DNA of 64,000 nucleotides from Candidatus Parcubacteria bacterium (GTDB lineage: Bacteria > Patescibacteriota > Minisyncoccia > UBA6257 > 2-01-FULL-56-20). The stretch lies in assembly GCA_027450205.1 (NCBI GenBank), contig DAIDJL010000002.1, positions 205,007 through 269,006 of the forward strand, given 5' to 3'. The notes under the pieces were generated by a model. The model made no database searches and was not told where the DNA came from. It was given only the letters and a program-made list of their open reading frames with translations. Shown one piece after another: positions 293 to 56,315 of this stretch (its first letter is position 1; the number at the start of each line of letters is the position of its first letter). A program made the translations under genes and the position numbers.

Positions 293-427
293 CTAAGGGT
301 GTACTTTCTAGCCTGCGTTTTTACAGCATTAAAATCGATGAGCGGGTTAGTGGATGACGTCAGAACCTTTTTGATGGAAAAGCCCAGCAAATTTCACATT
401 TCAGATTTAATAAGCGAGAAATGTTGA
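293..427 (+). repeat. Conserved intergenic element, family 1 copy A (core GGATGACGTCAGAACCTTTTTGATGG)
   Basis: About 90 nt identical to 3188-3280, and the upstream roughly 45 nt is similar with paired substitutions. Followed by hairpin 438-461 (gaggctgg..ccagcctc). Confidence 0.7.
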
Positions 428-470
428 GATAAAATATGAGGCTGGAAATTAATCCAGCCTCCACAAGCAT

Positions 471-932
471 TCATGTTTTTGTCGGATCGGAGCATTCTTC
501 AGCATTCCTTGAAATCACGATGCCATATTGCTCCTTCATCAGCTCAAGGAAATTGCCTCCGGCCTCTTGCGCTACCGGACTGAAGTCTTCGTTATGCGTG
601 ATGGTGTAGACCGTACCGACGCACCATGCCCGCAGTACGGTAAGGGCAATTTCTAGGCGCGCGATATTGCCCGTGAAGCAGATGAACCGTCGCTTGCTTT
701 CCGGATTCTCGTGAATATGGATTGGCACATCCGGGTTGATCCTCTCCCACACCGGAGACGCCACAAGCTCTATTTCGTGATGGATTCCCCCGTGGAGTTT
801 GTTTTCAAACCCTAGGTAGAAAGCTGGATCGATCAACTGTTCTGACGGAGACTCGCTCCTGTGGATGCGAACGCGGAACGTATAGCTCTTGTCTCCCGCG
901 TCAATAACTACTATGCGATTTTGAGTTATCAC
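471..932 (-). CDS. hypothetical protein (153 aa)
   Basis: ORF with GTG start at 932, preceded by AAGGAG RBS at 8 nt spacing. Hairpin plus A/T run downstream at 438-461. Confidence 0.5.
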   Translation of the reverse strand: MITQNRIVVIDAGDKSYTFRVRIHRSESPSEQLIDPAFYLGFENKLHGGIHHEIELVASPVWERINPDVPIHIHENPESKRRFICFTGNIARLEIALTVLRAWCVGTVYTITHNEDFSPVAQEAGGNFLELMKEQYGIVISRNAEECSDPTKT

Positions 933-1042
933 GTCCTGCGCTCCTTCTTATGTGCCGTGCAAACAATAACACTTTACAATCCATCCGTCAAATGTTAGAA
1001 TGTGGGCGGATCCTAATAATCCAAAACGAAAGGAGGTGGCAC

Positions 1043-1612
1043 GTGAAAATCCAAGTCCGCTGGCCTAAGGAAAGCAACGTTTCACCCGATGACCTGATTA
1101 TCAGTTACTACAAGCCAGAATTCGTGTATGTCCACGAAAGGCTTTGGGCGGTGAACCTCAAGGTTTCCACGGTGCATGAGGCCTTGTTACACAGTTCATC
1201 CGTCATTTGGAAGATTCTAGAAGAAGGAGACCGCGTTCCGGGTCACCGCCCGTACGCAGTACGATCCTTCATCTCCGACGGCGAAAGCGATGAAGCCCTC
1301 GAGTTTCTGAACGAGTTCCTCACCTTGTACGACGGGAGAACTGGATATCTCGACGAAGCGATGAAGCAGGCGATCAACGACATCCAGCTAATCCCAGGCC
1401 CATTCTCGGACAAACATATCGGGTGGATTCGTCACGACCTGACTAATTGCCTGACGTTCGGAACCGAAGTCACACGCACCACCGGTGGGCAGTTTCGGAA
1501 GACGTCCATGCCGAAAACCCCCCAGCCGCATATCCGGCTCGTTTGGATTCGTGGTGAGCCACGTAAAGAGAGGAAGCTGTATACGAGAAAATCAAAAGCC
1601 GGTTCCACGTAA
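1043..1612 (+). CDS. hypothetical protein
   Basis: GTG at 1043 preceded by AGGAGG (1031-1036) at 6 nt spacing. Divergent from 471..932. Longer ORF-track start at 950 lacks an RBS. Confidence 0.5.
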   Translation: MKIQVRWPKESNVSPDDLIISYYKPEFVYVHERLWAVNLKVSTVHEALLHSSSVIWKILEEGDRVPGHRPYAVRSFISDGESDEALEFLNEFLTLYDGRTGYLDEAMKQAINDIQLIPGPFSDKHIGWIRHDLTNCLTFGTEVTRTTGGQFRKTSMPKTPQPHIRLVWIRGEPRKERKLYTRKSKAGST

Positions 1613-1784
1613 GGAGGAACGGGTCGAAGACTAACAAGTGCCTGATGCTAATCTCATTAGGCGCTTTTTTATCCGAATATCATCCATCCACCCCTAAGCC
1701 CCAACAAAATTCCACTCGGGCAAAAATAGCATTAACAGAATCGAATCTTTTTTAAAATCTATCCACCGGAAGCCTCTTGTGTTT

Positions 1785-1880
1785 GAGCGGGCTAGTGGAT
1801 GATGTTAGAACCTGCTTTAGAGAAAGTGCCAGCCAATTTGCGATTCCTGATTTAATGGCCGAGAAATGCTGAGATAAAAG
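1785..1880 (+). repeat. Conserved intergenic element, family 1 copy B (diverged, about 80% to copy A)
   Basis: gagcgggctagtggatgatgttagaacc...gagaaatgctgagataaaag aligns along the full length of copy A. Followed by hairpin 1883-1906 and a T-run. Confidence 0.65.
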
Positions 1881-1930
1881 TTTGACCCACCTCTTGCGAA
1901 GTGGGTCTTTTGTGCGAGCAGCAGTCCGAT

Positions 1931-2233
1931 TCATTGTTCGGCAGATACGCCGTGACGCAAATGCTTTGCATGTTCGAACAACTCGTCCTCAGGCGGTGCA
2001 CCATGTCGTAGGTTTTTAACATGTTCGAACACAATGCTGTTCTGAGGAGTCGCAGGGACTTCCCTGTGAAAGAGGGCGACGCCGATGATGGGCTTGCGTA
2101 CTGGATCACACATACTGCATGGTATCCATAGAGGGAGCGACATCAGCATGAACGCTCCGACCATCCACAGGCACTTGAGCGAGGCGTTAAGAAATCGTTC
2201 CATTTCGGAACCTCCATATTTGAAGAGCTTCAA
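1931..2233 (-). CDS. small membrane protein with internal LFEH.K.LRHG repeat
   Basis: 100-aa ORF, hydrophobic segment, duplicated FEHVKNLRHG/FEHAKHLRHG motif. Confidence 0.3.
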   Translation of the reverse strand: MKLFKYGGSEMERFLNASLKCLWMVGAFMLMSLPLWIPCSMCDPVRKPIIGVALFHREVPATPQNSIVFEHVKNLRHGAPPEDELFEHAKHLRHGVSAEQ

Positions 2234-2340
2234 TACTTCGCCATTATAGCACTTTACAAATATATAGTCAAATGGTACTATATGCCAAGAACCACAACAA
2301 TGGGAGGGCTATCCCAAAATAGCAGAAATGGAGTTGTCAT

Positions 2341-2997
2341 ATGACGACGAAGAAGCAGCGTGTTGTCGCGGACGATGTCCTTGGTCAAATTTCACGGAGA
2401 ACCTGGGATTTACAAAGACGAGTGATGGAAGGAACACTAGACCCACAACAAGTGCTTAACTCTTTGCAGTCATTCGCCGAGGGGCACCCGGTTGTTCCAA
2501 CTGACGCACCGCCATTTATTCTTGGCCAGCGCGTTTATGAGATCGAGCAGCCGCCTAGCGGTGTCGGAATTCTTGCATTTGCCCAGAGTTCGCAATTCGA
2601 GGTCTATGGTGCCCATTTAGCGGATCAATGGCCGAAAACTCAACGGGTTCTCGACGCGAGCCAAACCAGCAAGGTGCGAGTTGCGTATTTTCAGCAAACT
2701 TTCATTGCTCGTACTGCATTCTCGATTGTCCAAGATAGTGGGATCGAATGCGCTGACGCATGGGAATTGGTTGCCTTCTGTAAGCAGTCAAGTTTCATTG
2801 CGGCACGCGATTTCGGATTCCATAGTCCCGTGAGGTTTGTTTCGGCAGTCGGAATAGAAACCGGCGATGACTTTTTGGGTGATAGGTATATCTATCTTGA
2901 GTCCAGCACCCACGCGAGGAAATGGGGATTCAATAACGGATGCGAAGGGGCATTTTTCAAGATCAATGCCGGTGATTACGTTCTTGTTCACGCTTAG
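2341..2997 (+). CDS. hypothetical protein (218 aa)
   Basis: ORF with GGAG RBS 6 nt upstream of ATG; no recognised domain. Confidence 0.5.
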   Translation: MTTKKQRVVADDVLGQISRRTWDLQRRVMEGTLDPQQVLNSLQSFAEGHPVVPTDAPPFILGQRVYEIEQPPSGVGILAFAQSSQFEVYGAHLADQWPKTQRVLDASQTSKVRVAYFQQTFIARTAFSIVQDSGIECADAWELVAFCKQSSFIAARDFGFHSPVRFVSAVGIETGDDFLGDRYIYLESSTHARKWGFNNGCEGAFFKINAGDYVLVHA

Positions 2998-3143
2998 CAC
3001 GTGGGCTACTCATCTGAGTAGTTAACATTCCAGGCAGTCTTTGCATTATGCGGAGGCTGCCTGATTTTTTTACCCAACCGCACTACTCACTATTGTTTAA
3101 AAGATATTCTGAGTATCGCCCGTAGGTAAATAGGTTCGACCCG

Positions 3144-3280
3144 CACTAAGGGTGCACGATCCAGCCCGCATGATTGCAGGCCTAAAATTTAGGAGCGGGT
3201 TAGTGGATGACGTCAGAACCTTTTTGATGGAAAAGCCCAGCAAATTTCACATTTCAGATTTAATAAGCGAGAAATGTTGA
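3144..3280 (+). repeat. Conserved intergenic element, family 1 copy C
   Basis: 3188-3280 identical to 338-427. Upstream part cactaagggtgcac...gcaggcctaaaattt aligns to copy A with paired changes. Followed by hairpin 3293-3323. Confidence 0.7.
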
Positions 3281-3340
3281 TCATTAAAAGAATGGGCAGC
3301 AACCTCGTAATGAGGTCGCTGCCCTTCCTAGGTAAAGTGC

Positions 3341-3856
3341 CTAGACGTCCGTCTTTGATTCTGCGAGATAATCCTTGAAACTTCCTCTTACACCGAAATG
3401 TGCTTCTGCGGCAAGGGAATGAGCATCCCAGAATATCCGCTTCAAGTCTTTGATGATATCTCCAAGGTTGATAAACTCGGCGAGAGTCACATCAGCGTCG
3501 AGGGAAGGTTGTTTTGCAAGCTGTGCTTGTTGTTCGCAAACTCCCCAGAGCCGACGAGCGCGACGGGTAAGTTCATCAGTGATTGCTGCCTGGATATAAC
3601 TGTTGTTAGCGGACATGGGCCAGCCGAACACCAATTCGAAGCGGCCGCGTATATCGTTCCACCGTCGACTTTCCATCTTGCGGATTGCCAGTGTGATCAT
3701 CGCCTCGATAATAACTACGATGGTGACGGCAAGAATCATATAGAGAACAAACCGACCAAAAGAGATTTTGTCGGCATAGAGGAGATAGGCACAATACATT
3801 CCGATTATGCCACTCACAATGCGTCCGGGCCATACAACCTTTTTATCCAGCACCAT
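3341..3856 (-). CDS. membrane protein (two TM helices plus cytoplasmic domain)
   Basis: ATG at 3856 with GGAGAG RBS; hydrophobic helices in the N-terminal third. Confidence 0.5.
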   Translation of the reverse strand: MVLDKKVVWPGRIVSGIIGMYCAYLLYADKISFGRFVLYMILAVTIVVIIEAMITLAIRKMESRRWNDIRGRFELVFGWPMSANNSYIQAAITDELTRRARRLWGVCEQQAQLAKQPSLDADVTLAEFINLGDIIKDLKRIFWDAHSLAAEAHFGVRGSFKDYLAESKTDV

Positions 3857-3980
3857 AACATCCTGCTTTCTCTCCGCTCTCCGGAGTTGTTGAAATTGTT
3901 CGGCTGCTCTACAGCGGAACTGCGCACATCATATCATTTGACAATCCATCCGTCAAGAGGTAGAATGTGGGCAGTCGTTC

Positions 3981-4241
3981 ATGAGGTTTGAAATGACATG
4001 TGGCATCGTTGTTCCTCGACAGGAAGAAATCGTGGGCCATCGTCAAGATGGCTATTCGGCGGAATGTATTCTCAAGTCGGGAAATCACTCTCGGCATGTG
4101 ATAAAAATGCCGGAGGGAAAATTCTTTGCGTGGGAAGATGATTGGGACTGCGATTGCTGCGCGCCTGACGAAGACGATCGTTGTTATTGTTTTTGGGAAA
4201 TAAGCGAACAGGAGGCAATCAATCTCGGTGCCTCTTTGTGA
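3981..4241 (+). CDS. small Cys-rich acidic protein
   Basis: 86-aa ORF with CDCC..C.C cluster; weak support. Confidence 0.3.
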   Translation: MRFEMTCGIVVPRQEEIVGHRQDGYSAECILKSGNHSRHVIKMPEGKFFAWEDDWDCDCCAPDEDDRCYCFWEISEQEAINLGASL

Positions 4242-4979: not shown

Positions 4980-5008
4980 TTGACAGTCAGTCCATTTTCA
5001 TTTAAAAT
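4980..5008 (+). promoter_or_regulatory. sigma70-type promoter (TTGACA-17-TAAAAT)
   Basis: TTGACA 4980-4985, 17 nt spacer, TAAAAT 5003-5008. Predicted TSS about 5016, right at the start of the long stem. Confidence 0.5.
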
Positions 5009-5016
5009 CTGTTCCT

Positions 5017-5140
5017 GAGCTTAGAAGCTCAATCTTGTGCCCGGCAGGGGGGACGATCCCCTTTTCCATAGTTCAAGGCTATGTGTCCTACCCACCGTAG
5101 ACGAGCCGGGCATAAGATTGAGTTTCTAAGCTCTTTTTTG
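5017..5140 (+). ncRNA. candidate small structured RNA (29-bp closing stem, three internal hairpins, U-tract end); alternatively a MITE-like element
   Basis: Arms 5017-5045 and 5105-5133 are reverse complements with two C-to-T changes that give G.U pairs. Inner hairpins ggggg/cccc and catag/ctatg. T6 at 5134-5139. No ORF. Confidence 0.35.
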
Positions 5141-7578: not shown

Positions 7579-7717
7579 GGTTTGGGTCGTTAGAAGGTCG
7601 TTAATCCGCTGTGCGTCTCTTGCCCCCGTCGAGCAGGAAGTGGCAAGGTTCGAACACGGAGAAACACCTGATGAATCAGGCGGCCTAGAAGGATTCCATG
7701 AAATAAGTCCTAACTTG

Positions 7718-7788
7718 AGCGGGTAACGGGAGTCGAACCCGTGACTTCACCTTGGAAGGGTGACGTAATACCGTTATACAATACCCGC
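7718..7788 (-). tRNA. tRNA-Gly (anticodon TCC)
   Basis: Manual fold: acceptor GCGGGTA/TACCCGC, anticodon loop CTTCCAA, T-arm ACGGG-TTCGACT-CCCGT, discriminator T. CCA not encoded. Confidence 0.8.
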
Positions 7789-7860: not shown

Positions 7861-8484
7861 TTGCTACAAATAGGTAATCCGAATATGTCCAAATTCTCGC
7901 GTCGCACCAAGATCATTGCGGCTTTCATCATACTCGTGGCGCTGGGATATGGGCTTGCCATCTTTTGGCAATCGCAGAACAAGGTGCCGGCGGACTTCAC
8001 CGCGGCACGGCTTCAGGGGGCGATCATCGCGCAGACGATCGTCAATACATCCAATCAGTCCACTGCGGCGCTCGAACAGATAAATAAATACGATCAGCAG
8101 GGCAATTATACCGCCGCGCTCGCTTCAACGACGGACCTTATCAATCAGAGCGCGGGGTTGCGCGACGAAGCGGTGCAGTTGTCCGCGCAGGTGAGCCAGA
8201 TGACGAAGGATCTCTCGAGTATCAACTCCGGCGCCGCACAGCAGGCGGCATTGGAATCCATTTCGAGCCGTCTTGCGCTCATCAACGAGCTTATCACGTA
8301 CAGCAACGATCTCGACCGCCTCCTCACCGTTCTCCAGGCGCGGTTTAGCGGCACGCTCGAACCGAATGGCGTCGTGCAGGGATTGGTGAACCAGATCAAT
8401 ACCGATGTGAATGCGATCAACAATTTCAATGCGCAGGCCGGGCAGGCGATGGATAAATTTGATTCGATAGAGAAGGGAAATTAA
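7861..8484 (+). CDS. membrane-anchored coiled-coil protein
   Basis: N-terminal TM (IIAAFIILVALGYGLAIFW), Q/A/L-rich helical remainder. Probable start at ATG 7885. Terminator-like hairpin plus T-run follows. Confidence 0.5.
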   Translation: MLQIGNPNMSKFSRRTKIIAAFIILVALGYGLAIFWQSQNKVPADFTAARLQGAIIAQTIVNTSNQSTAALEQINKYDQQGNYTAALASTTDLINQSAGLRDEAVQLSAQVSQMTKDLSSINSGAAQQAALESISSRLALINELITYSNDLDRLLTVLQARFSGTLEPNGVVQGLVNQINTDVNAINNFNAQAGQAMDKFDSIEKGN

Positions 8485-24730: not shown

Positions 24731-24768
24731 GGGTGCCTGGGTGGAGGAAGTCAGAACCTGTTTGGGGG
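24731..24768 (+). repeat. Conserved intergenic element, family 2 copy D (GGGTGCCTGGGTGGAGGAAGTCAGAACCTGTTTG)
   Basis: Shares gggtgcctgggtg.agga.gtcagaacctgtttg with copies at 25794 and 27431. Confidence 0.65.
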
Positions 24769-24786
24769 CAAAGGGTTGAAAGTTTT

Positions 24787-25793: not shown

Positions 25794-25840
25794 TGGGTGC
25801 CTGGGTGAAGGATGTCAGAACCTGTTTGATCGGATTATAA
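25794..25840 (+). repeat. Conserved intergenic element, family 2 copy E
   Basis: gggtgcctgggtgaaggatgtcagaacctgtttgatcggattataaa; intergenic. Confidence 0.65.
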
Positions 25841-40060: not shown

Positions 40061-40205
40061 AACGATTTACACGTGCCCGATGCATCCGGATGTGAAACAG
40101 GATGCGCCGGGGAGGTGTCCAAAATGCGGCATGAATCTGGTAGCGGTGGATGCGGGTACGACAGAAAGTGGACATGCGCACAAATCTTCAGGCGGTTGCT
40201 GTTAA
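40041..40205 (+). CDS. small metal-binding protein (CPMHPD...CPKCGMNLV module) ending GGCC
   Basis: [37 protein letters not shown]...SSGGCC; paralogous to the N-terminus of the downstream ATPase. Track ORF 39897..40205 is an upstream extension. Confidence 0.5.
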
Positions 40206-40212
40206 CGATACA

Positions 40213-42315
40213 ATGAATAACGAATCCCAAAAACTTTATACCTGCCCCATGGATCCGGATGTCATTTCCGACCATCCCGGGGAATGCCCGAAGTGCGGCA
40301 TGAATCTGGTTCCCATGGACATGGGCGGCCATGATGGTAGTGATGCGCACGCCGGTCATGGCGGCGCCGAGCAGGATTTCAAGCGCCGCTTCTGGATCAC
40401 GCTTCCTTTCGTGCTGGTTGCCATGGCGCTCTCGCCGAACATCCAGCTATGGTTTCATTTTGAATGGACGGTTCCCGGCGGGAGCCTGTGGCTCTTCCTG
40501 ATCGGCGCCTTCGTGTTTTCCTACGGCGGCTGGCCGTTCTTCAAGGCGGCCAAGGGCGAACTGACGCATAAGAATCCTGCCATGATGACGCTCGTCGCTT
40601 TTGCCATCACCGTAGCATTTGCATTCTCCGTGGCCGCCACGTTCTTTTTCCCCGGATCATCACTCTACTGGGAGATGGCGACACTGATCTCCGTTTTCCT
40701 GCTCGGCCACTGGCTTGAGATGCGGGCGGTGCGCGGCGCGACCGGCGCTCTTTCGGAACTGGCGAAACTCATTCCGCCCTCCGCGCACCTCGCAAAAGAC
40801 GGCCAGCTTACCGACGTGCAGACTAGCCAATTGATGATCGGCGACAGGGTATTGGTAAAACCCGGCGAGAAGGTTCCGGTGGACGGCAGGGTTGTGGACG
40901 GTGAAAGTTCGGTGAGTGAAGCGATGCTCACTGGCGAATCGCGCCCGATCGGCAAAAAGGCGGGCGACGAGGTTGTGGGCGGATCGCTCAATCAGGACGG
41001 ATCGCTCACGGTCGAAGTGGCGAAGACCGGGGCGGATACGGCCATCGCTCAGATCATGAAACTCGTGCGCGAGGCACAGGGTTCCAAGCCGAACGTCCAG
41101 CATCTCGCGGATCGCGCGGCATCGGTGCTCTTTTATGTTGCCGTTGCGGCGGGTCTGATTTCGTTCGTGGTCTGGTATTTTGTGTTCCCGCAGGGGGCGA
41201 TCTTCGCCGCCACCGTGGCCGTTGCCGCGATCGTCATCGCCTGTCCGCACGCGCTCGGCCTTGCGATCCCCACGGTAACGTCCATCACGACGACCTTGGG
41301 CGCGAAGAACGGCATTTTAATCAAAGATATGAAGGGTTTGGAGATTGCGCGGAAACTTAACTACGTGGTATTCGACAAGACCGGCACGCTCACCAAGGGT
41401 GAATTCGGGGTTGTCGATATCGCCGCGTCCGGAACGTCCGATGTCCGCGATGAGAATGAACTGCTCGCGCTCGCCGCAGCCGTTGATGTGCCGTCGCAAC
41501 ATTCGATCGCGCAGGGCATCGTGAAGGCCGCCAAAGAAAAGAACCTCCGCATAGAGGAGGTCAAGGGCTTCAAATCGTATCCGGGCAAAGGGGTTTCCGG
41601 CATGGTCGGCGACAAAGAGGTTTTGATTGGCAACAAGGTGCTCATGCAGGAGCAAAATGTGGCAGGCGTAATGGACGTCGTGAGCCGCAGCGCCGAGGTG
41701 GGCACCCCGAACTACGTGGCAGTGAACGGAAAGTTTGCGGGGACGATCTTTCTCGCGGATATAGTGCGGGATGAATCCAAGGAAACCATCGCACGCTTGC
41801 GTGCGATGGGCATCAAGACGGCGATGCTCACGGGCGACACGCAGGACGTCGCCGATGCCGTCGGCCGTGAACTCGGCATCGACACGGTGTTCGCGCATGT
41901 ATTACCCGAAGACAAGGTCAACAAGGTGAAGGAGCTCCAGTATGGCGGCAATATCGTCGCCATGGTGGGCGACGGCGTGAACGACGCCGCATCACTCACC
42001 CAGGCGCACGTCGGTATCGCGATCGGGGCGGGCACAGACGTGGCGGTGGCATCGGCGGACATTGTCCTGATGAAGAGCAACCCGCTCGACGTGGCGAAGA
42101 CGATTACCCTCAGTCGCAAGACGAACCGCAAGATGGTCCAGAACCTCGCGTGGGCGACGGGGTACAACGTGTTCGCCATCCCTATCGCCGCGGGCGTGCT
42201 CTATCCTTCATTCGGCATCCTCCTCCCTCCTGCGTGGGCGGCGATCCTCATGAGCACATCGTCGGTGATCGTGGTCGGGAACGCGCTGCTCTTGAGAAAA
42301 GAAAAACTGGGATAG
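40213..42315 (+). CDS. copB: copper-exporting P1B-type ATPase, CPH subtype (CopB-like) with N-terminal CPMDPD...CPKCGMNLV domain
   Basis: [24 protein letters not shown], 8 TM; start [15 protein letters not shown] at 40213 (track 40150). Confidence 0.9.
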
Positions 42316-45903: not shown

Positions 45904-46195
45904 GCAGGCGCTACACTTAACCCATAACTGAATATGATGGGGCGCAAGCCTCGGAGCCTAAACCTTCACCGGCATGGCTCATAAGACTCAAACCAGAATA
46001 CTGAACCCCGCGTTCAGCAACTCTGGTTTGAGCCGTACTGGGAAACTGGTACGGGACCGAAAGGTCTAGCTGACACGGGGTTCAGTGTTATTTCTTTCCG
46101 TGTCGGCTATCAAAGGCCGGCATTTTTGTTTATCAATTCGTGATCAAAATCAATCACAGAAAGAAAATTAAGGAGGATAGAAAATAACCAATACT

Positions 46196-47734: not shown

Positions 47735-50700
47735 GTGAGCATGAACGGCGATTTACAACCAAACACACAAGGGTTACCGGATGGGTTTAAGCGGGACGAT
47801 CATCAGGACTCAATTTATGAGCGCCTTAGGCGACTAGTAGGCCCCGGCCCTGCCGATTTTTACAATGACGCATGTAGGCATTTCGCTACCCAACCGCCTT
47901 TTTCCAGCGCCACCCACCTTATCGGGCATCTTATGCGCGAAATCGAAAGCGCCCTGCGAGATGTCTTAGAGCCGCTCGCCGATTCCACAAAATTGGCGGC
48001 GATCGATAAAAATAAAAAACACGACGGCACCATCAGGGTCATCTTGGACGCGCTCGGCATTCCCGAGTCAGATCCGATTGCGAAGGCCTGGCTGAGCATG
48101 GCCGGCGACGACGGATTGTACAGTCGGGCTCATCGGAATAATCTCGAGGCCGCGCGGCCGCTCGACGATGAATTTGTTGAATTTTGGGCGCAGTTCGAAT
48201 CGGTGTTGTCTGCGGTGCTCGACAAATTCGAGGGTCAGTATACAAAAGTATTCGAGACGATCGATGTTCTTGCGAAAAGATCGAATCCTACCGAGGGAGA
48301 TGCCAAGCTTTTCCTGTTGCATATCCCTAACGATTTCCTTTCCCGCACCCGTCTCTTCGATCAGATGATTGATCCCGGATGGCTGCCTTTATTGAAGGGG
48401 AAAGGGGTGTTCGATGAGGTGCCACGTCCAGAGCAGAATTTCGAAGAGCGTACCACGCGCTACTTGCCATGGCCGCCCGTGAATTACCTGATCAAAATGG
48501 CTCCACTGGATGGAAAGGCGGTGGCGGCCATCCTGCTTGCAGTGAAAGACAACGACAATGCCATAGCAAAAGGCAACCTTCTGACGATCGCTGCCAACCT
48601 TCCGAAAGAACAAAGGGAATCCATTCTGGAGAAGGCAAAGGAGTGGATGAAAACGCATCATCCGTTTTATGTAGTCGACGCAGCGAAGAAACTTGCCGGG
48701 CAATTTGCGGATGATGGGCAAACCGATTCAGCTCTCGAAATTGCGAGCACCCTCCTGGAAATTCTGCCCGATCCAAGATCGCAAGCCGGTGAGGAAAATA
48801 AGGCAGCATGGTTTTCTCCCGATCCCCAGACCCGCCTCGATGACTGGCAGTACGGAGAATTTTTGAAAAGGGATTTTCAGAAGATTGTTGCACTCGATCC
48901 GCAAAAAGCCTACGACCTCACGGCTCGGCTATTGTTGGATTTTGTGAACCTGAAGACAGGCCACTATCCCGATCACAATTTCGATGATGCGATGCACATC
49001 TCGTGCCCGTCTATCGGTGGAGGCGACGATCAGCGCGACTTCGATCGTCTGGAACGCATCTTGGTCCATGCGGTGCGCAGTACCGCAGAGGCCGTCGTGC
49101 AAAAAAATCCAGAGAAATTCCCCGCGGTAATTTCCGATTTGGAAGGCAAAAAATGGACCATCTTCCGGCGCATCGCCCTCTATATCCTGAGCGAAGCTCC
49201 TGATTCCATGCGAGATCTCATCGCGCAGCACCTCACGGACGATGCACTCTTTAATGATTCATCCTTTAGAGCAGAATACAAACTGCTTGCCGAGAAGAGG
49301 TTCCCATTGCTGACAAAAGAAGAGCAAGGCCTTATTTTCGGGTGGATCGAAAAAGCCGAACGGCCGAAGGAGATGATCGCGGCAGATAAAAACGAGTTCA
49401 CGCCGAAGCAGGCCGAAGATTATGTGAGACGGTGGCAACGAAATAAGCTCGATTATCTGGAAGGGCATCTTAACGACGATCTGAAGGAGCGCTACGCGAC
49501 GCTGCTGGCTACTCAGCCAGACCCCCCGGACGGCACCATCACCGAATGGTATGGTCCGACGAGCAGCCTGAACGCCCAGCAGTTGATCACTATGGATTCG
49601 TCCGCTATCATCGAGCACCTGAAGGCATGGGAACCGAAAAACGAGCATTTCGGTTTTGGTCCGACCAAAGAGGGGCTGGGCCGTGAAATTGTGTCTGCAA
49701 TCAAGCTGAAGCCGGAATTGTTCCGGGATCTCGCCGATGAATTTAAGGGGCTAGATCCGACCTATATCCGCTCTTACATCTCGGGATTTGAAGAGGTTGC
49801 CCGGAAAGGGACGGCGCTTGATTGGCCTGCAATGTTCTCGCTCATCCAGTGGGTTATGGATCAGCCGCGGGAGATGCCGGGCAGGAGGGGCGGCGATATG
49901 GATCAGGACCCCGACTGGGGATGGACGAGGAAAGCCATCGCTTCGCTTTTCACGCATGCGGCCAATGCGAACCAAATCCCATTCGAGATGAGAAAGCAGT
50001 TTTGGAAAGCGTTGGAGCCGCTTACCGACGATACGGATCCGACTCCAGGCAAGGAAAAAATCGATGAGAATTCATTTGCAAATGATGCCTACGGATGGAC
50101 GATCAACACAACCAGAGGGGAAGCGATGAGTGCACTGATCGAGTATGCATTGTGGGTATACCGCAACACGGAAAAACTCCCCAACGGGAAAGAGGAAATC
50201 AAAAAAGGATTCGGCATTATGCCCGAAGTGAAAGAAGTTCTAGAAAAACACCTCGATCCGAAGGTCGATCCTTCCATCGGAGTGCGTGCCGTCTATGGAA
50301 GGTTCTTGCCGTGGCTCATATTCATGGACGAACCCTGGGTCATTAAGAACCTCGAGAACATCTTCCATCGGGGTGAATTCGGCGAACCTCTTTACGCCGC
50401 CGCATGGGATACCTACATGATGCATGTCCCAGGCGCATACAATCGCCCTTTCGAAGTGCTGCAAGATCAGTACAAAGAAGCGGTGAGGAATCTCGGCAAG
50501 GTAAAAAGGAAACAGGGTCGGTTTACTGACCGCGATGAACGCGTCGCCGAACAATTAATGATCTTCTTTTGGCGCGACAAAGTTAAGCTGAGCGACAACC
50601 TTTTCAAGTCCTTTTGGGAGAATGCCGATGCCTCTCTCCGCGGTCATGCGATTAGCTTCGTCGGACGGAGCATCAAGAATATTGAAGATGTTCCGCCACC

Positions 50701-51139
50701 CGAGGTCATCGTCGCCCTAAAGGGACTCTGGCAGAACCGCATTGACGCACTCGCGAAAGCGGACGACAAAAAGCAATTCGCCGAAGAAATGGCTGCATTT
50801 GGCTGGTGGTTCGCATCGGGGAAGTTCGACGACGAATGGAGCGCGGCCCAGTATTTGGCCGCTCTCGACATCGGGACGAAATTCCAATCCGATCACTTCG
50901 TGCTGCAACGTCTTGTGGAATTGGTAAAAACAATGCCATTTGAAGCGGTGCGGATTTTGACCAAGCTGCTTTTGGCCAAGGATCAGGCGCAATGGAGGGT
51001 GGCAGGGAATAAAAATGAAATCACGCAAATCCTTTTGGCGGGGTTAGGCAGTGCAGATTCAACCGCTCAAAATGAAGCACGGGATTTGATCAATCGATTG
51101 GTGGCAAGAGGATACGACGATTTTCAGGCATTACTTTAA
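47735..51139 (+). CDS. large (1134 aa) cytoplasmic alpha-helical repeat protein of unknown function
   Basis: Uninterrupted ORF, no signal peptide, no P-loop recognised by eye; immediately followed by a protease gene. Confidence 0.7.
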   Translation: MSMNGDLQPNTQGLPDGFKRDDHQDSIYERLRRLVGPGPADFYNDACRHFATQPPFSSATHLIGHLMREIESALRDVLEPLADSTKLAAIDKNKKHDGTIRVILDALGIPESDPIAKAWLSMAGDDGLYSRAHRNNLEAARPLDDEFVEFWAQFESVLSAVLDKFEGQYTKVFETIDVLAKRSNPTEGDAKLFLLHIPNDFLSRTRLFDQMIDPGWLPLLKGKGVFDEVPRPEQNFEERTTRYLPWPPVNYLIKMAPLDGKAVAAILLAVKDNDNAIAKGNLLTIAANLPKEQRESILEKAKEWMKTHHPFYVVDAAKKLAGQFADDGQTDSALEIASTLLEILPDPRSQAGEENKAAWFSPDPQTRLDDWQYGEFLKRDFQKIVALDPQKAYDLTARLLLDFVNLKTGHYPDHNFDDAMHISCPSIGGGDDQRDFDRLERILVHAVRSTAEAVVQKNPEKFPAVISDLEGKKWTIFRRIALYILSEAPDSMRDLIAQHLTDDALFNDSSFRAEYKLLAEKRFPLLTKEEQGLIFGWIEKAERPKEMIAADKNEFTPKQAEDYVRRWQRNKLDYLEGHLNDDLKERYATLLATQPDPPDGTITEWYGPTSSLNAQQLITMDSSAIIEHLKAWEPKNEHFGFGPTKEGLGREIVSAIKLKPELFRDLADEFKGLDPTYIRSYISGFEEVARKGTALDWPAMFSLIQWVMDQPREMPGRRGGDMDQDPDWGWTRKAIASLFTHAANANQIPFEMRKQFWKALEPLTDDTDPTPGKEKIDENSFANDAYGWTINTTRGEAMSALIEYALWVYRNTEKLPNGKEEIKKGFGIMPEVKEVLEKHLDPKVDPSIGVRAVYGRFLPWLIFMDEPWVIKNLENIFHRGEFGEPLYAAAWDTYMMHVPGAYNRPFEVLQDQYKEAVRNLGKVKRKQGRFTDRDERVAEQLMIFFWRDKVKLSDNLFKSFWENADASLRGHAISFVGRSIKNIEDVPPPEVIVALKGLWQNRIDALAKADDKKQFAEEMAAFGWWFASGKFDDEWSAAQYLAALDIGTKFQSDHFVLQRLVELVKTMPFEAVRILTKLLLAKDQAQWRVAGNKNEITQILLAGLGSADSTAQNEARDLINRLVARGYDDFQALL

Positions 51140-54653: not shown

Positions 54654-56252
54654 ATGGAAAAATCAGCAGAGAAAATTAAATACTTCATGTACGCTCGCAA
54701 ATCGTCCGAGAGCGAGGATCGGCAGATGGCGTCTATCGAATCCCAGATTGACGAGCTGAAAAAGCTTGCCAAAGAAAACAATCTCGAGATCGTCGAGGTG
54801 TTTTCCGAATCAAAGTCGGCGAAAGCGCCGGGTCGCACGGAGTTCAGGAAAATGATCGAGCGCATTCAGGAAGGTGAAGTACAAGGTGTCATCTGCTGGA
54901 AGCTGAACCGGCTGGCGAGGAATCCTGTTGATGGCGGGGAAATCAGCTGGCTGCTTCAGCAGAGTGTCATCAAGCACATCCAGACGTATGGGCGGAGCTA
55001 TTACCCGACCGATAACGTCTTAATGATGAGCGTGGAGTTCGGCATGGCGAACCAATTTGTGAAGGACTTGAGCGTGGATACGAAGCGCGGCATGCGGGCA
55101 AAGGCGGAGCGAGGATGGTGTCCCGGTCCGGCTCCCGTCGGATATCTCCATAATCCCATTAAGAAACAGGGCGAAAAGGAGGTTCTTTCCGATGAAAAGC
55201 GTTTTGGCATCGTCTCAAAATGCTGGGCGATGATGCTCATGGGAGCGCATACGGTGCCACAGGTGTGGGAGGTTGCGGTGAACCGGTGGGGCCTTACCGG
55301 TCGCATGGGGAAGAAGCTCAGTTTGAGCAACATGTATGCTTTGTTTGCTAATCCCTTCTATTGCGGAGAGTTTGAGTATCCTCTTGGAAGCGGTATCTGG
55401 CATCAGGGGAAGCACGAGCCGATGATTACCCGGAAAGAATTCGAGCGCGTGCAGACCATTATGGGCTGGGGCAACAAGTCACGGCGGAAGACGCATGACA
55501 TTTCCATGCGCGGCCCGATCCTGTGTGGGGAGTGCGGCGCAATGATTACAGCCGAGGAGAAAGTCAAAATCCAAAAGAATGGAAATCGCCATGAATACAC
55601 TTACTACCACTGTACTGGGCGAAAAAACAAGAATTGCTTGCAGAAGCGCATCCGCATTGAAGAGAAGGAGTTAGAGCGACAGGTTAAGGAAATCTTTTCA
55701 AAGGTTGAAATCCCGCAGGAGTTTTATGAGTGGGCCATGGATGTATTACGCGAGTCGAATGAGGCGGAGTCGACAACTCGTGCGAAGATCACCGACAGTC
55801 AGCGGGCAGAATACGATCGTAGCGTGAAGATGATCGACGCCATCATCGATATGCGGGCGCGTGGCGAAATCACCGAGGAAGAGTTTACGCGACGCAAGAC
55901 ATCGCTGCTTACGGAAAAACATCACTTACAAGGGCTTATTAACGATGCCGACAAAGGTGTAGATGATTGGCTCGCAACGGCCGACAAGTATTTCAACTTC
56001 GCGGCGAATGCCAAGCGGAAGTTCGAAAACGGCACATCCGACGAGATCCGGGAGCTACTAACCCTCTTAGGTTCGGACCTCCTCTTAACGCAAGGAAAAC
56101 TCAGTGTTTCCTTGGCCGAACCACTCATCGTGATCGAAAAATTAGCGCCGGGAGCACGACTCATAAATGAGAGGTTTGGACCTGCAAAAAATGCAGAAGA
56201 TATAAAGGAATTAAGAACGTTATACGCTCAAAATTCAACAAGGGGTGCCTAA
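54654..56252 (+). CDS. large serine recombinase (resolvase catalytic domain plus recombinase and zinc-ribbon domains)
   Basis: N-terminal YARKSSESEDRQMASIESQ (catalytic Ser region), recombinase domain, Cys4 CGECG...C..C, C-terminal coiled coil; stop codon lies inside tRNA-His. Confidence 0.85.
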   Translation: MEKSAEKIKYFMYARKSSESEDRQMASIESQIDELKKLAKENNLEIVEVFSESKSAKAPGRTEFRKMIERIQEGEVQGVICWKLNRLARNPVDGGEISWLLQQSVIKHIQTYGRSYYPTDNVLMMSVEFGMANQFVKDLSVDTKRGMRAKAERGWCPGPAPVGYLHNPIKKQGEKEVLSDEKRFGIVSKCWAMMLMGAHTVPQVWEVAVNRWGLTGRMGKKLSLSNMYALFANPFYCGEFEYPLGSGIWHQGKHEPMITRKEFERVQTIMGWGNKSRRKTHDISMRGPILCGECGAMITAEEKVKIQKNGNRHEYTYYHCTGRKNKNCLQKRIRIEEKELERQVKEIFSKVEIPQEFYEWAMDVLRESNEAESTTRAKITDSQRAEYDRSVKMIDAIIDMRARGEITEEEFTRRKTSLLTEKHHLQGLINDADKGVDDWLATADKYFNFAANAKRKFENGTSDEIRELLTLLGSDLLLTQGKLSVSLAEPLIVIEKLAPGARLINERFGPAKNAEDIKELRTLYAQNSTRGA

Positions 56253-56315
56253 CGGGAATCGGACCCGTATTGCCGCTGCCACAGAGCGGAGCTTTACCAT
56301 TAAGCTATAGGCACC
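56244..56315 (-). tRNA. tRNA-His (anticodon GTG) with genomically encoded G-1
   Basis: G-1 plus acceptor GTGCCTA/TAGGCAC, D-arm GCTT-AATGGTA-AAGC, anticodon stem CCGCT/AGCGG with loop CTGTGGC, T-arm ACGGG-TCCGATT-CCCGT, discriminator C. Confidence 0.8.

Follow-up and report, generated by a model that had tools for sequence, protein, structure and literature searches.

Repeats upstream of a tRNA-Gly gene in a Candidatus Parcubacteria contig as probable junctions of elements integrated by large serine recombinases

Three direct repeats and the tRNA genes downstream of them

The window analysed here, a 64,000-nt stretch of contig DAIDJL010000002.1 (Candidatus Parcubacteria bacterium), is part of a bacterial chromosome that encodes FtsH, P-type ATPases, SHMT and scattered tRNAs, and it is syntenic, at 74-82% nucleotide identity, with locus L012 from a metagenome-assembled genome (MAG) labelled Candidatus Saccharibacteria. 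Near its beginning lie three direct copies of a repeat, at 339-434, 1784-1879 (78% identical) and 3192-3287 (94%), followed downstream by a tRNA-Gly(TCC) gene on the opposite strand (7717-7788, -); further along, a large serine recombinase (LSR) gene adjoins a tRNA-His gene. We argue that the three copies are very probably attL-type junctions of elements that an LSR integrated into the 3' end of tRNA-Gly.

A first-pass annotation, made from the sequence alone, had described a conserved element in three copies, two of them identical over about 90 nt and the other about 80% identical to them. This description is borne out, both by the direct repeats as measured above and by the 27-mer AGCGGGYTAGTGGATGAYGTYAGAACC, which occurs three times in the window and not once in 100 shuffles. 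Copies 1 and 3 have 152 nt in common (276-427 and 3129-3280, 88%), and within these they are 100% identical exactly from an AGC (341/3194) to a TGA stop (427/3280). The palindrome TGACGTCA, which had been reported in all three copies, is found in copies 1 and 3 alone. Its place is taken by GAYGAYGTT in copy 2, as in most relatives, and the palindrome is therefore incidental.

Each copy starts with a core of 8-10 nt equal to the antisense 3' end of tRNA-Gly(TCC), after which come a conserved module of ~20 nt and an open frame of ~28 codons. In copy 1 (340-427, +) the core GAGCGGGT, which matches the antisense tRNA-Gly 3' end, occupies 340-347, the module TAGTGGATGACGTCAGAACC 348-367 (+) and the frame, SGLVDDVRTFLMEKPSKFHISDLISEKC and a stop, 341-427 (+). 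Copy 2 (1785-1872, +) has the core GAGCGGGC at 1785-1792, a module that extends to 1812 and the frame SGLVDDVRTCFRESASQFAIPDLMAEKC, again with its stop, at 1786-1872 (+), while in copy 3 (3193-3280, +) the core GAGCGGGT (3193-3200) is followed by the module at 3201-3220, the frame occupying 3194-3280. Below, the module is read as a P'-type half-site and the frame as the detached tail of an LSR.

The sequences to the left of the cores are of two kinds. Copy 1 (184-339, +, non-coding) and copy 3 (3100-3192, +) have a 'type 1' left arm, and copy 2 has a different, 'type 2' arm (..TCCACCGGAAGCCTCTTGTGTTT). The far end of the copy 1 arm holds a degenerate inverted module, GTAGATGATAGTAGAACC (184-201, -), and the same arm contains inverted cores (CTAGCC.GC) and inverted GAACC motifs (AGAGGTTC); the inverted motifs at 279-320 are oddly spaced, as AGAGGTTC-N23-CTAGCCCGC-N25-GCGGGCTAG-N12-GAACCTTT.

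Relatives were found by exact pattern scans of reference genomes, metagenome contigs and viral contigs. The reference genomes gave 14 pattern matches, about 9 of them true family members, from Patescibacteria, Saccharibacteria, Gammaproteobacteria and Vicingus MAGs; the metagenome contigs gave 69 stretches with the pattern, and the viral contigs, scanned with a 25-mer, gave no match. Throughout the family the start of a copy is the reverse complement of a tRNA 3' end (CCA or trailer, discriminator and acceptor strand), and the matching tRNA gene sits downstream of the copies on the opposite strand. In the window, this gene is the tRNA-Gly(TCC), which reads cttGAGCGGGTAACGGGAGTCGAACC on the + strand. 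With the core xGA/GCGGGY (class A), the next downstream tRNA was an antisense tRNA-Gly in 16 of the 19 loci where a tRNA was found, and with xGC/GCGGGC (class B) it was tRNA-Asp in 9 of 13 such loci, plus one locus of unscored class. A third class was predicted and then confirmed, the core GGAGAG of the protein hit P0030 leading to locus L087, where an antisense tRNA-Ser lies 490 nt downstream. In a fourth, present in the window itself, the core GGGTGCCT pairs with tRNA-His. A minus-strand pseudo-tRNA was rejected as the identity of the repeat: the 3' end of its reverse complement does resemble that of a tRNA, but ARAGORN and Rfam made no call, and no 5' acceptor partner or T-stem was seen by inspection.

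Arrays of 2-5 copies in the same orientation occur at at least 20 loci, and copy number varies among relatives with equal flanks, from one in L012 and three in the window to five or more in L079. At L082 the order is ASCH, one copy, 0.7 kb and then tRNA-Gly. Downstream of an element copy with the core TGGCGGAGGTT in L084/L085 (767-5994) come genes for a D12 DNA methyltransferase and a DUF6996/6997/7226 protein and one of the HTH_17 (excisionase-like) type; the core points to a tRNA target different from the known classes, and the gene content suggests restriction-modification cargo with a possible directionality factor.

The conserved frame and the large serine recombinase genes

Nearly every copy keeps the frame [SR]GLVDDVRTxFxxxxxxFxIPxL open, and its third codon positions vary most (entropy by codon position 0.96/0.99/1.31), with codons F18, I20, P21 and L23 keeping positions 1 and 2. 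Part of the conservation of the tail (VRT = GTT AGA ACC) is the DNA-binding motif itself; the hydrophobic-x-hydrophobic-P-x-L/F motif ~12 residues after VRT, variable at third codon positions, looks conserved at the protein level.

These features could be taken to indicate an independent gene for a protein of ~29 aa, duplicated three times, and the end of the copy 1/copy 3 identity exactly at the stop codon, as well as the ATG or TTG at -2 in copies 1 and 2, would fit such a gene. We consider it very improbable. Copy 3 has AGG at -2, a start codon stands there in only about half of the copies, and the -2 triplet is simply the complement of the tRNA trailer or CCA (TGG, TTG, CGG...); there is no Shine-Dalgarno sequence, and the same frame forms the C-terminus of an LSR in free elements. 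The first-pass annotation had noticed but left unused this conserved frame, which lacks credible start codons. It proves to be the key to the repeats, as it appears to be the 3' end of an LSR gene that integration has parted from the remainder of that gene.

The link to recombinases is seen within the window. An LSR gene at 54654-56252 (+), with the Pfam domains Resolvase, Recombinase and Zn_ribbon_recom, ends in the codons AGG GGT GCC TAA, which overlap the 3' end of a tRNA-His(GTG) gene (56242-56314, -), the putative target of the LSR-bearing element. Two copies with the tRNA-His-type core GGGTGCCT lie upstream, one at 24731-24779 (+) with the module GTGGAGGAAGTCAGAACC and a short tail, GAWVEEVRTCLGAKG and a stop, the other at 25795-25840 (+) with the module GTGAAGGATGTCAGAACC and the tail GAWVKDVRTCLIGL and a stop. 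Their modules (24731-24758 and 25795-25822) are more diverged than those of the Gly copies, and over the core the window LSR is read in the same frame as they are (GGT GCC TGG GTG GAG GAA GTC AGA ACC). The copy at 25795-25840 would be a candidate distal junction of the LSR-bearing island, and the ~30 kb between it and the end of the LSR gene (25795-56252) may represent one or several integrated elements. This interval contains a CopA-type ATPase (40150-42315), an MFS transporter and a 1134-aa open reading frame (ORF; 47735-51139) with a weak Dsr1-like match. It also contains a LOOT RNA at 45955-46067 (+) (Rfam RF03000, 70.7 bits against a gathering score of 46.4), which, because it is located between the His-type copies and the LSR, may belong to an island integrated at tRNA-His.

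Homologues of the window LSR number more than 5,231 at E<=1e-30, many of them from Patescibacteria, and the best 120 end in three ways. About 60 stop at or just past the core (..LLRG, ..NSTRGA), about 36 read through the tRNA antisense (..DSNPRP.., e.g. ..RGWDSNPRPAG), and about 22 run into the element peptide, with tails of the form x[DN][DENK][VI]RT..., such as P0063 (..NSTRGRIVEDVRTRIMRQNGHIYIPELVRA), P0066 (..RIVEDVRTRIATQNEYVYIPDL..) and P0081 (..LLRLLDDVRTCLMG...). The tail-bearing genes, whose DNA shows core and module, lie on phage- or plasmid-like contigs (Rad52, RuvC, PDDEXK, Phage_CRI, AAA_25) with no tRNA nearby.

In the free forms P0063, P0066, P0081, P0095 and L055 the ORF, of 530-600 aa, is continuous across the core; the LSR frame of L055, for example, runs on into ..SPTLSGLVDDVRTYW..LIPRF.. 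(..SPTLSGLVDDVRTYWMNEREPVLIPRF..) and its stop. In the integrated forms, namely the window LSR, L042 and L072, it is interrupted. The LSR ORF of L042 ends ..KKFPTLSG and that of L072 ..QQFPLLSG, in each case with a stop on the antisense tRNA-Gly, and in L042 a tail copy, LSGLVDDVRTYWQSSGDLFYIPSF and a stop, lies 8.6 kb upstream, with the same core at the LSR 3' end and at this distal copy. Because LSR and tail are continuous in the free forms, and the LSR ends on the tRNA in the integrated ones, we read the frame, on sequence grounds, as a detachable C-terminal tail of the LSR. We also considered whether it might be the 3' end of some large, conserved gene of the host, now orphaned, and rejected this given that the matches to a profile of the tail peptide are ORFs of only 29-95 aa.

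Core, 5-nt offset and the proposed integration reaction

Beyond the core, element and tRNA are related in a particular way. The element continues TAGTGGA-TGACG-TCAGAACC and the tRNA AACGGGA-GTCGAACC, the two being the same save for 5 extra nt in the element. Across 32 element/tRNA pairs, which span five tRNA classes (Gly, Asp, Arg, Ser and His), the distance from the core to T(T/C)(A/C)GAAC is 5 nt longer in the element in 26; this count rests on that T-loop motif, a looser one having given mixed spacings of 5, 10 and 11. Five of the other six pairs scored 11 because the regular expression matched the T-stem, an artefact by inspection of the sequences. The identity between element and antisense tRNA in the 32 pairs is only 5-11 nt long, with a median of about 8.

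In LSR systems the zinc ribbon (ZD) motif occupies bp 16-24 of the half-site in attP and bp 11-19 in attB, and attB is ~10 bp shorter overall than attP (Rutherford et al. 2013, PMC3783163). Since the 5-nt offset equals this published shift, the element is, as judged by its sequence, a P'-type half-site and the tRNA end, here the antisense 3' end GAGCGGGTAACGGGAGTCGAACC of tRNA-Gly(TCC), a B'-type half-site. By the numbering of PMC3783163 the crossover centre is GAGC/GGGT, within the identity block.

The same observations bear on the more familiar possibility of a classical tRNA island, in which a tyrosine integrase would act and the repeats would be displaced tRNA 3' fragments. Such islands do lie at tRNA 3' ends and stack in tandem, among them tycheposons, where successive tRNA-linked elements make up a variable island that includes degenerate remnants lacking an integrase (10.1101/2020.12.28.424599). 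The repeats of tycheposons, however, are ~40-nt partial tRNA copies, whereas here 5-11 nt of tRNA identity are followed by a non-tRNA module and the tail frame. Moreover, a motif regular expression, like spot Pfam scans of neighbouring genes, found no tyrosine recombinase within 5 kb, in complete elements it is a serine recombinase that adjoins the tRNA, and the 5-bp offset is an LSR signature; a tyrosine-integrase island is thus very unlikely.

Comparisons between relatives fit exchange at the core. A cassette common to window copy 2, L049 and L026 begins to be homologous exactly at the core, and the left arms differ. Homologues of the type-1 arm occur in L012, L026, L049 and L061; the arm adjoins P' in the window, L012, L049 and L061, and an intact tRNA-Gly in L012. 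In L026, positions 1588-1606 are a true 19-nt remnant of a tRNA-Gly 3' end, GAGCGGGTAAGGGGAGTCG, with the type-1 arm before it and unrelated DNA after it, and this tRNA copy was broken by a different event. To find one arm beside P', a tRNA or a remnant is the outcome to be expected if right halves had been exchanged at the core.

We therefore propose the following scheme for an LSR family that is widespread in Patescibacteria and would carry its attP core inside the 3' end of the recombinase's own gene. The free form has, in order, the LSR gene, the core (the last 8-10 nt of the tRNA, antisense), the P' half-site, ~25 codons and a stop. Recombination with a tRNA gene, whose core and acceptor/T-arm would serve as B', would place the LSR beside the tRNA, with its frame now stopping in the tRNA antisense (AGC GGG TAA at Gly, GGT GCC TAA at His), and the P' half-site and the tail codons would end up on the other side of the insert, away from the tRNA. 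Each of the three window copies, all in one orientation upstream of the antisense tRNA-Gly, would be a far end of this kind. The units between them lack a recombinase and consist of 1-2 cargo genes that have promoters and terminators of their own; they would be cassettes stacked at the tRNA-Gly, with the Gly copies as their junctions. In one possible model, an LSR element that excised with a distal or a proximal attL would pick up or drop cassettes. Directly seen are the tRNA match, the 5-bp attP/attB offset, the continuity of LSR and tail in free forms and the overlap of LSR and tRNA in integrated ones; from these we infer that the sites recombine. The first-pass annotation had offered a mobile or recombination-site element as one of its readings, and recombination junctions at a tRNA gene are a specific form of it.

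Several points weigh against this scheme. By hmmsearch the tRNA-Gly array in the window contains no LSR gene or LSR remnant (all E>1), and around most arrays motif regular expressions and spot Pfam scans showed no recombinase up to 5 kb away. As attP and attB are the only pair that canonical LSRs recombine, repeated integration at an attR is unexpected, and for this reason we can only infer how units without a recombinase accumulate, either by being moved in trans or as deletion remnants. The half-sites lack clear dyad symmetry in a manual comparison: the left halves (LSR 3' end, type-1 arm and type-2 arm) do not mirror P' and B' where this would be expected, with only weak TTAG-like matches. 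A tail-peptide profile run against 5.8 billion proteins returned nothing but the short ORFs mentioned above, which at first seemed to speak against any origin as the end of a gene; the longer LSR-tail fusions surfaced later, in the search for LSR homologues, the fused tails being too diverged or too short for the profile. Finally, the evidence for recombination is sequence comparison throughout.

A structured small RNA family, with + strand transcripts ended by a hairpin, was favoured alongside a mobile element in the first-pass annotation, and we now regard it as highly improbable. Folded singly, copies 1 and 3 exceed shuffled sequences in stability (z about -4), and a hairpin follows each copy, but copy 2 folds no better than its shuffles (z -0.29), and the extra stability was traced to inverted repeats of the left arm that act at the level of DNA. 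Rfam returned no match even at E<=10, and RNAalifold found no consensus structure in the conserved 72 nt of 22 diverse copies (3 pairs, -0.22 kcal/mol, 0 compensatory). The paired upstream substitutions that had been taken for covariation fare no better: among seven left-arm homologues none of the 26 predicted pairs is compensatory, and the covariation term is +1.47. In the un-integrated forms, moreover, the sequence is embedded in a longer protein-coding gene, the 530-600-aa ORF, a situation that the annotation had itself named as speaking against an RNA. As for the strong hairpins said to follow each copy, they exist, but a terminator scan assigns all three, T-runs included, to the minus strand, and only at copy 2 is there a + strand T-run as well; they are therefore terminators of the convergent cassette genes. 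The first is an intrinsic terminator at 438-461 (-) for gene 471-932, its minus-strand hairpin being followed by ATATTTTATC; the second, at 1884-1907 (-), serves gene 1931-2233 and is bidirectional, with a T-run on both sides; the third, at 3294-3324 (-), serves gene 3341-3856.

Least likely of all are integron-like attC or Xer/dif-like (IMEX) sites served by a host recombinase, for which the single orientation of the recombinase-less cassettes, the inverted repeats of the left arm and a faint likeness of GATGTTAGAA to the dif XerD arm (just 6-7 nt, by our own comparison) could be cited, but against which stand sites at several tRNA genes rather than one dif locus, a core that changes with the tRNA, no integron integrase among the ORFs scanned (no specific IntI search was made) and no R''-L''/L'-R' architecture by inspection (no specific attC search was made). 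A diversity-generating retroelement was ruled out, the differences between copies not being adenine-specific.

If the copies are attL-type junctions, integration might also act as a switch, with a tail-bearing free LSR, a truncated integrated LSR, and orphan tails and P' sites that offer alternative excision partners; taken as a whole, this extension is possible but doubtful. Were it true, integration itself would alter the activity, stability or directionality of the enzyme, excision with a distal attL would gain neighbouring cassettes and with a proximal attL would drop them, and the result would be an integron-like exchange of cassettes by serine recombinases at Patescibacteria tRNA genes, a bacterial serine-type counterpart of the archaeal 'suicidal' integrases.

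Cassettes, flanks and related systems

The units of the tRNA-Gly array share a layout of copy, minus-strand gene, divergent promoter module of ~50 nt, plus-strand gene and terminator. Cassette 1 (471-1612) comprises a gene at 471-932 (-), a promoter module at 959-1007, a gene at 1043-1612 (+) and a terminator at 1636-1666; cassette 2 (1931-2997) a gene at 1931-2233 (-), a promoter module at ~2243-2290, a gene at 2341-2997 (+) and a terminator at 3031-3063; and cassette 3 (3341-4241) a gene at 3341-3856 (-), a promoter module at 3924-3972 and a gene at 3981-4241 (+). The ten cargo ORFs of the window gave no Pfam or PADLOC match, and a reading of them as defence or toxin systems was rejected; the 100-aa gene of cassette 2 recurs in L026, L049 and L066, and cargo at other loci is miscellaneous (CYTH, NTase-like, EEP, acetyltransferase). 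The promoter module, of which there is one per cassette, is also found in L012, L027, L049, L061, L067 and L079, and it has overlapping -35/-10 pairs in the two directions, together with a possible operator, the palindrome TTGAC-N9-GTCAA. Cassettes from different genomes also cease to be homologous within it, and for this reason it may be a second recombination hotspot.

G+C is lower in the first 8 kb of the window, which in a blastn search of a phage database matched at tRNAs only. Beyond the tRNA-Gly, 7861-8484 (+) encodes a predicted membrane/coiled-coil protein of 207 aa with a weak DUF2514 match, kept beside tRNA-Gly, tRNA-Ile and FtsH in all related Saccharibacteria loci; this gene marks the fixed right flank of the variable array. 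At 5037-5111 (-) ARAGORN alone calls a tRNA-Gln(ttg) cloverleaf, for which the Rfam tRNA model gives no call. It lies within a 29-nt inverted repeat (5017-5045 / 5105-5133), with a T-run after 5133 and, before it, a consensus promoter at 4980-5008 (+) (TTGACA-17-TAAAAT), and 5017-5133 may be a + strand tRNA-like small RNA.

Compared with the attachment systems of A118/LI, Bxb1 and phiC31, the family described here has in common the short identity core, the attP-type half-site 5 bp longer with its ZD shift, the Resolvase, Recombinase and Zn_ribbon_recom domains and, at the tRNA-His of the window and in L042, L072 and L055 though not at the three tRNA-Gly copies, a recombinase gene linked to a junction. 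It differs in that the target is the acceptor/T-arm end of a tRNA, in that the half-sites show little symmetry on the left, in that the attP core lies inside the 3' coding region of the recombinase so that integration would alter its C-terminus, and in the tandem arrays of units without a recombinase. SCC islands at rlmH (orfX) of staphylococci are tandem cassettes moved by the LSRs CcrAB, with short direct repeats, and many lack ccr. Composite SCC islands thus offer a likeness in LSR-driven tandem cassettes, many of them without a recombinase, at the 3' end of a conserved gene, whereas here the target is a tRNA, the host belongs to another phylum, the attachment site lies inside the LSR gene and the matches of the window LSR to the NCBIfam models CcrB and CcrA are weak (87 and 71 bits, against cut-offs of 900 and 700).

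Cluster G/N/P mycobacteriophages have a tyrosine integrase, and their integration into a tRNA gene gives a C-terminally truncated repressor. Integration-dependent immunity of this kind, with attP inside the repressor gene, has been described (PMC4557955). As in our family, a phage gene contains attP in its 3' part, and the free and integrated forms encode two isoforms; unlike it, the protein that is truncated there is a repressor, and here it would be the serine recombinase itself. SSV-type integrases with the attachment site inside their own gene have been reported as exclusive to archaea (review, PMC8371274). The 'suicidal' integrases of SSV1 type resemble the present case in having the site within the recombinase gene, a tRNA target and a piece of the ORF at the distal junction, but they are tyrosine recombinases split near the N-terminus, whereas the enzyme here is a bacterial serine recombinase that would lose its last ~12-30 residues; the window LSR, with the Pfam domains given above, does not have the tyrosine recombinase fold. 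What appears to be new is a bacterial serine recombinase family that would target tRNA ends and change its own C-terminus on integration. With respect to serial elements that build a variable island at a tRNA gene, the likeness to tycheposons stands.

The reading as attL-type junctions would account for a puzzling repeat whose nucleotide sequence is conserved across Patescibacteria, and would make the Saccharibacteria tRNA-Gly locus a hotspot that gathers cassettes of variable genes. It would also define a very large LSR family, with more than 5,000 homologues, whose targets are tRNA acceptor/T-arm ends and whose attachment site lies in its own gene. Such a family would be a natural source of varied attP/attB pairs, covering at least five tRNA targets and differing only in the short core, and these pairs would be useful for understanding, and perhaps for retargeting, serine integrases.

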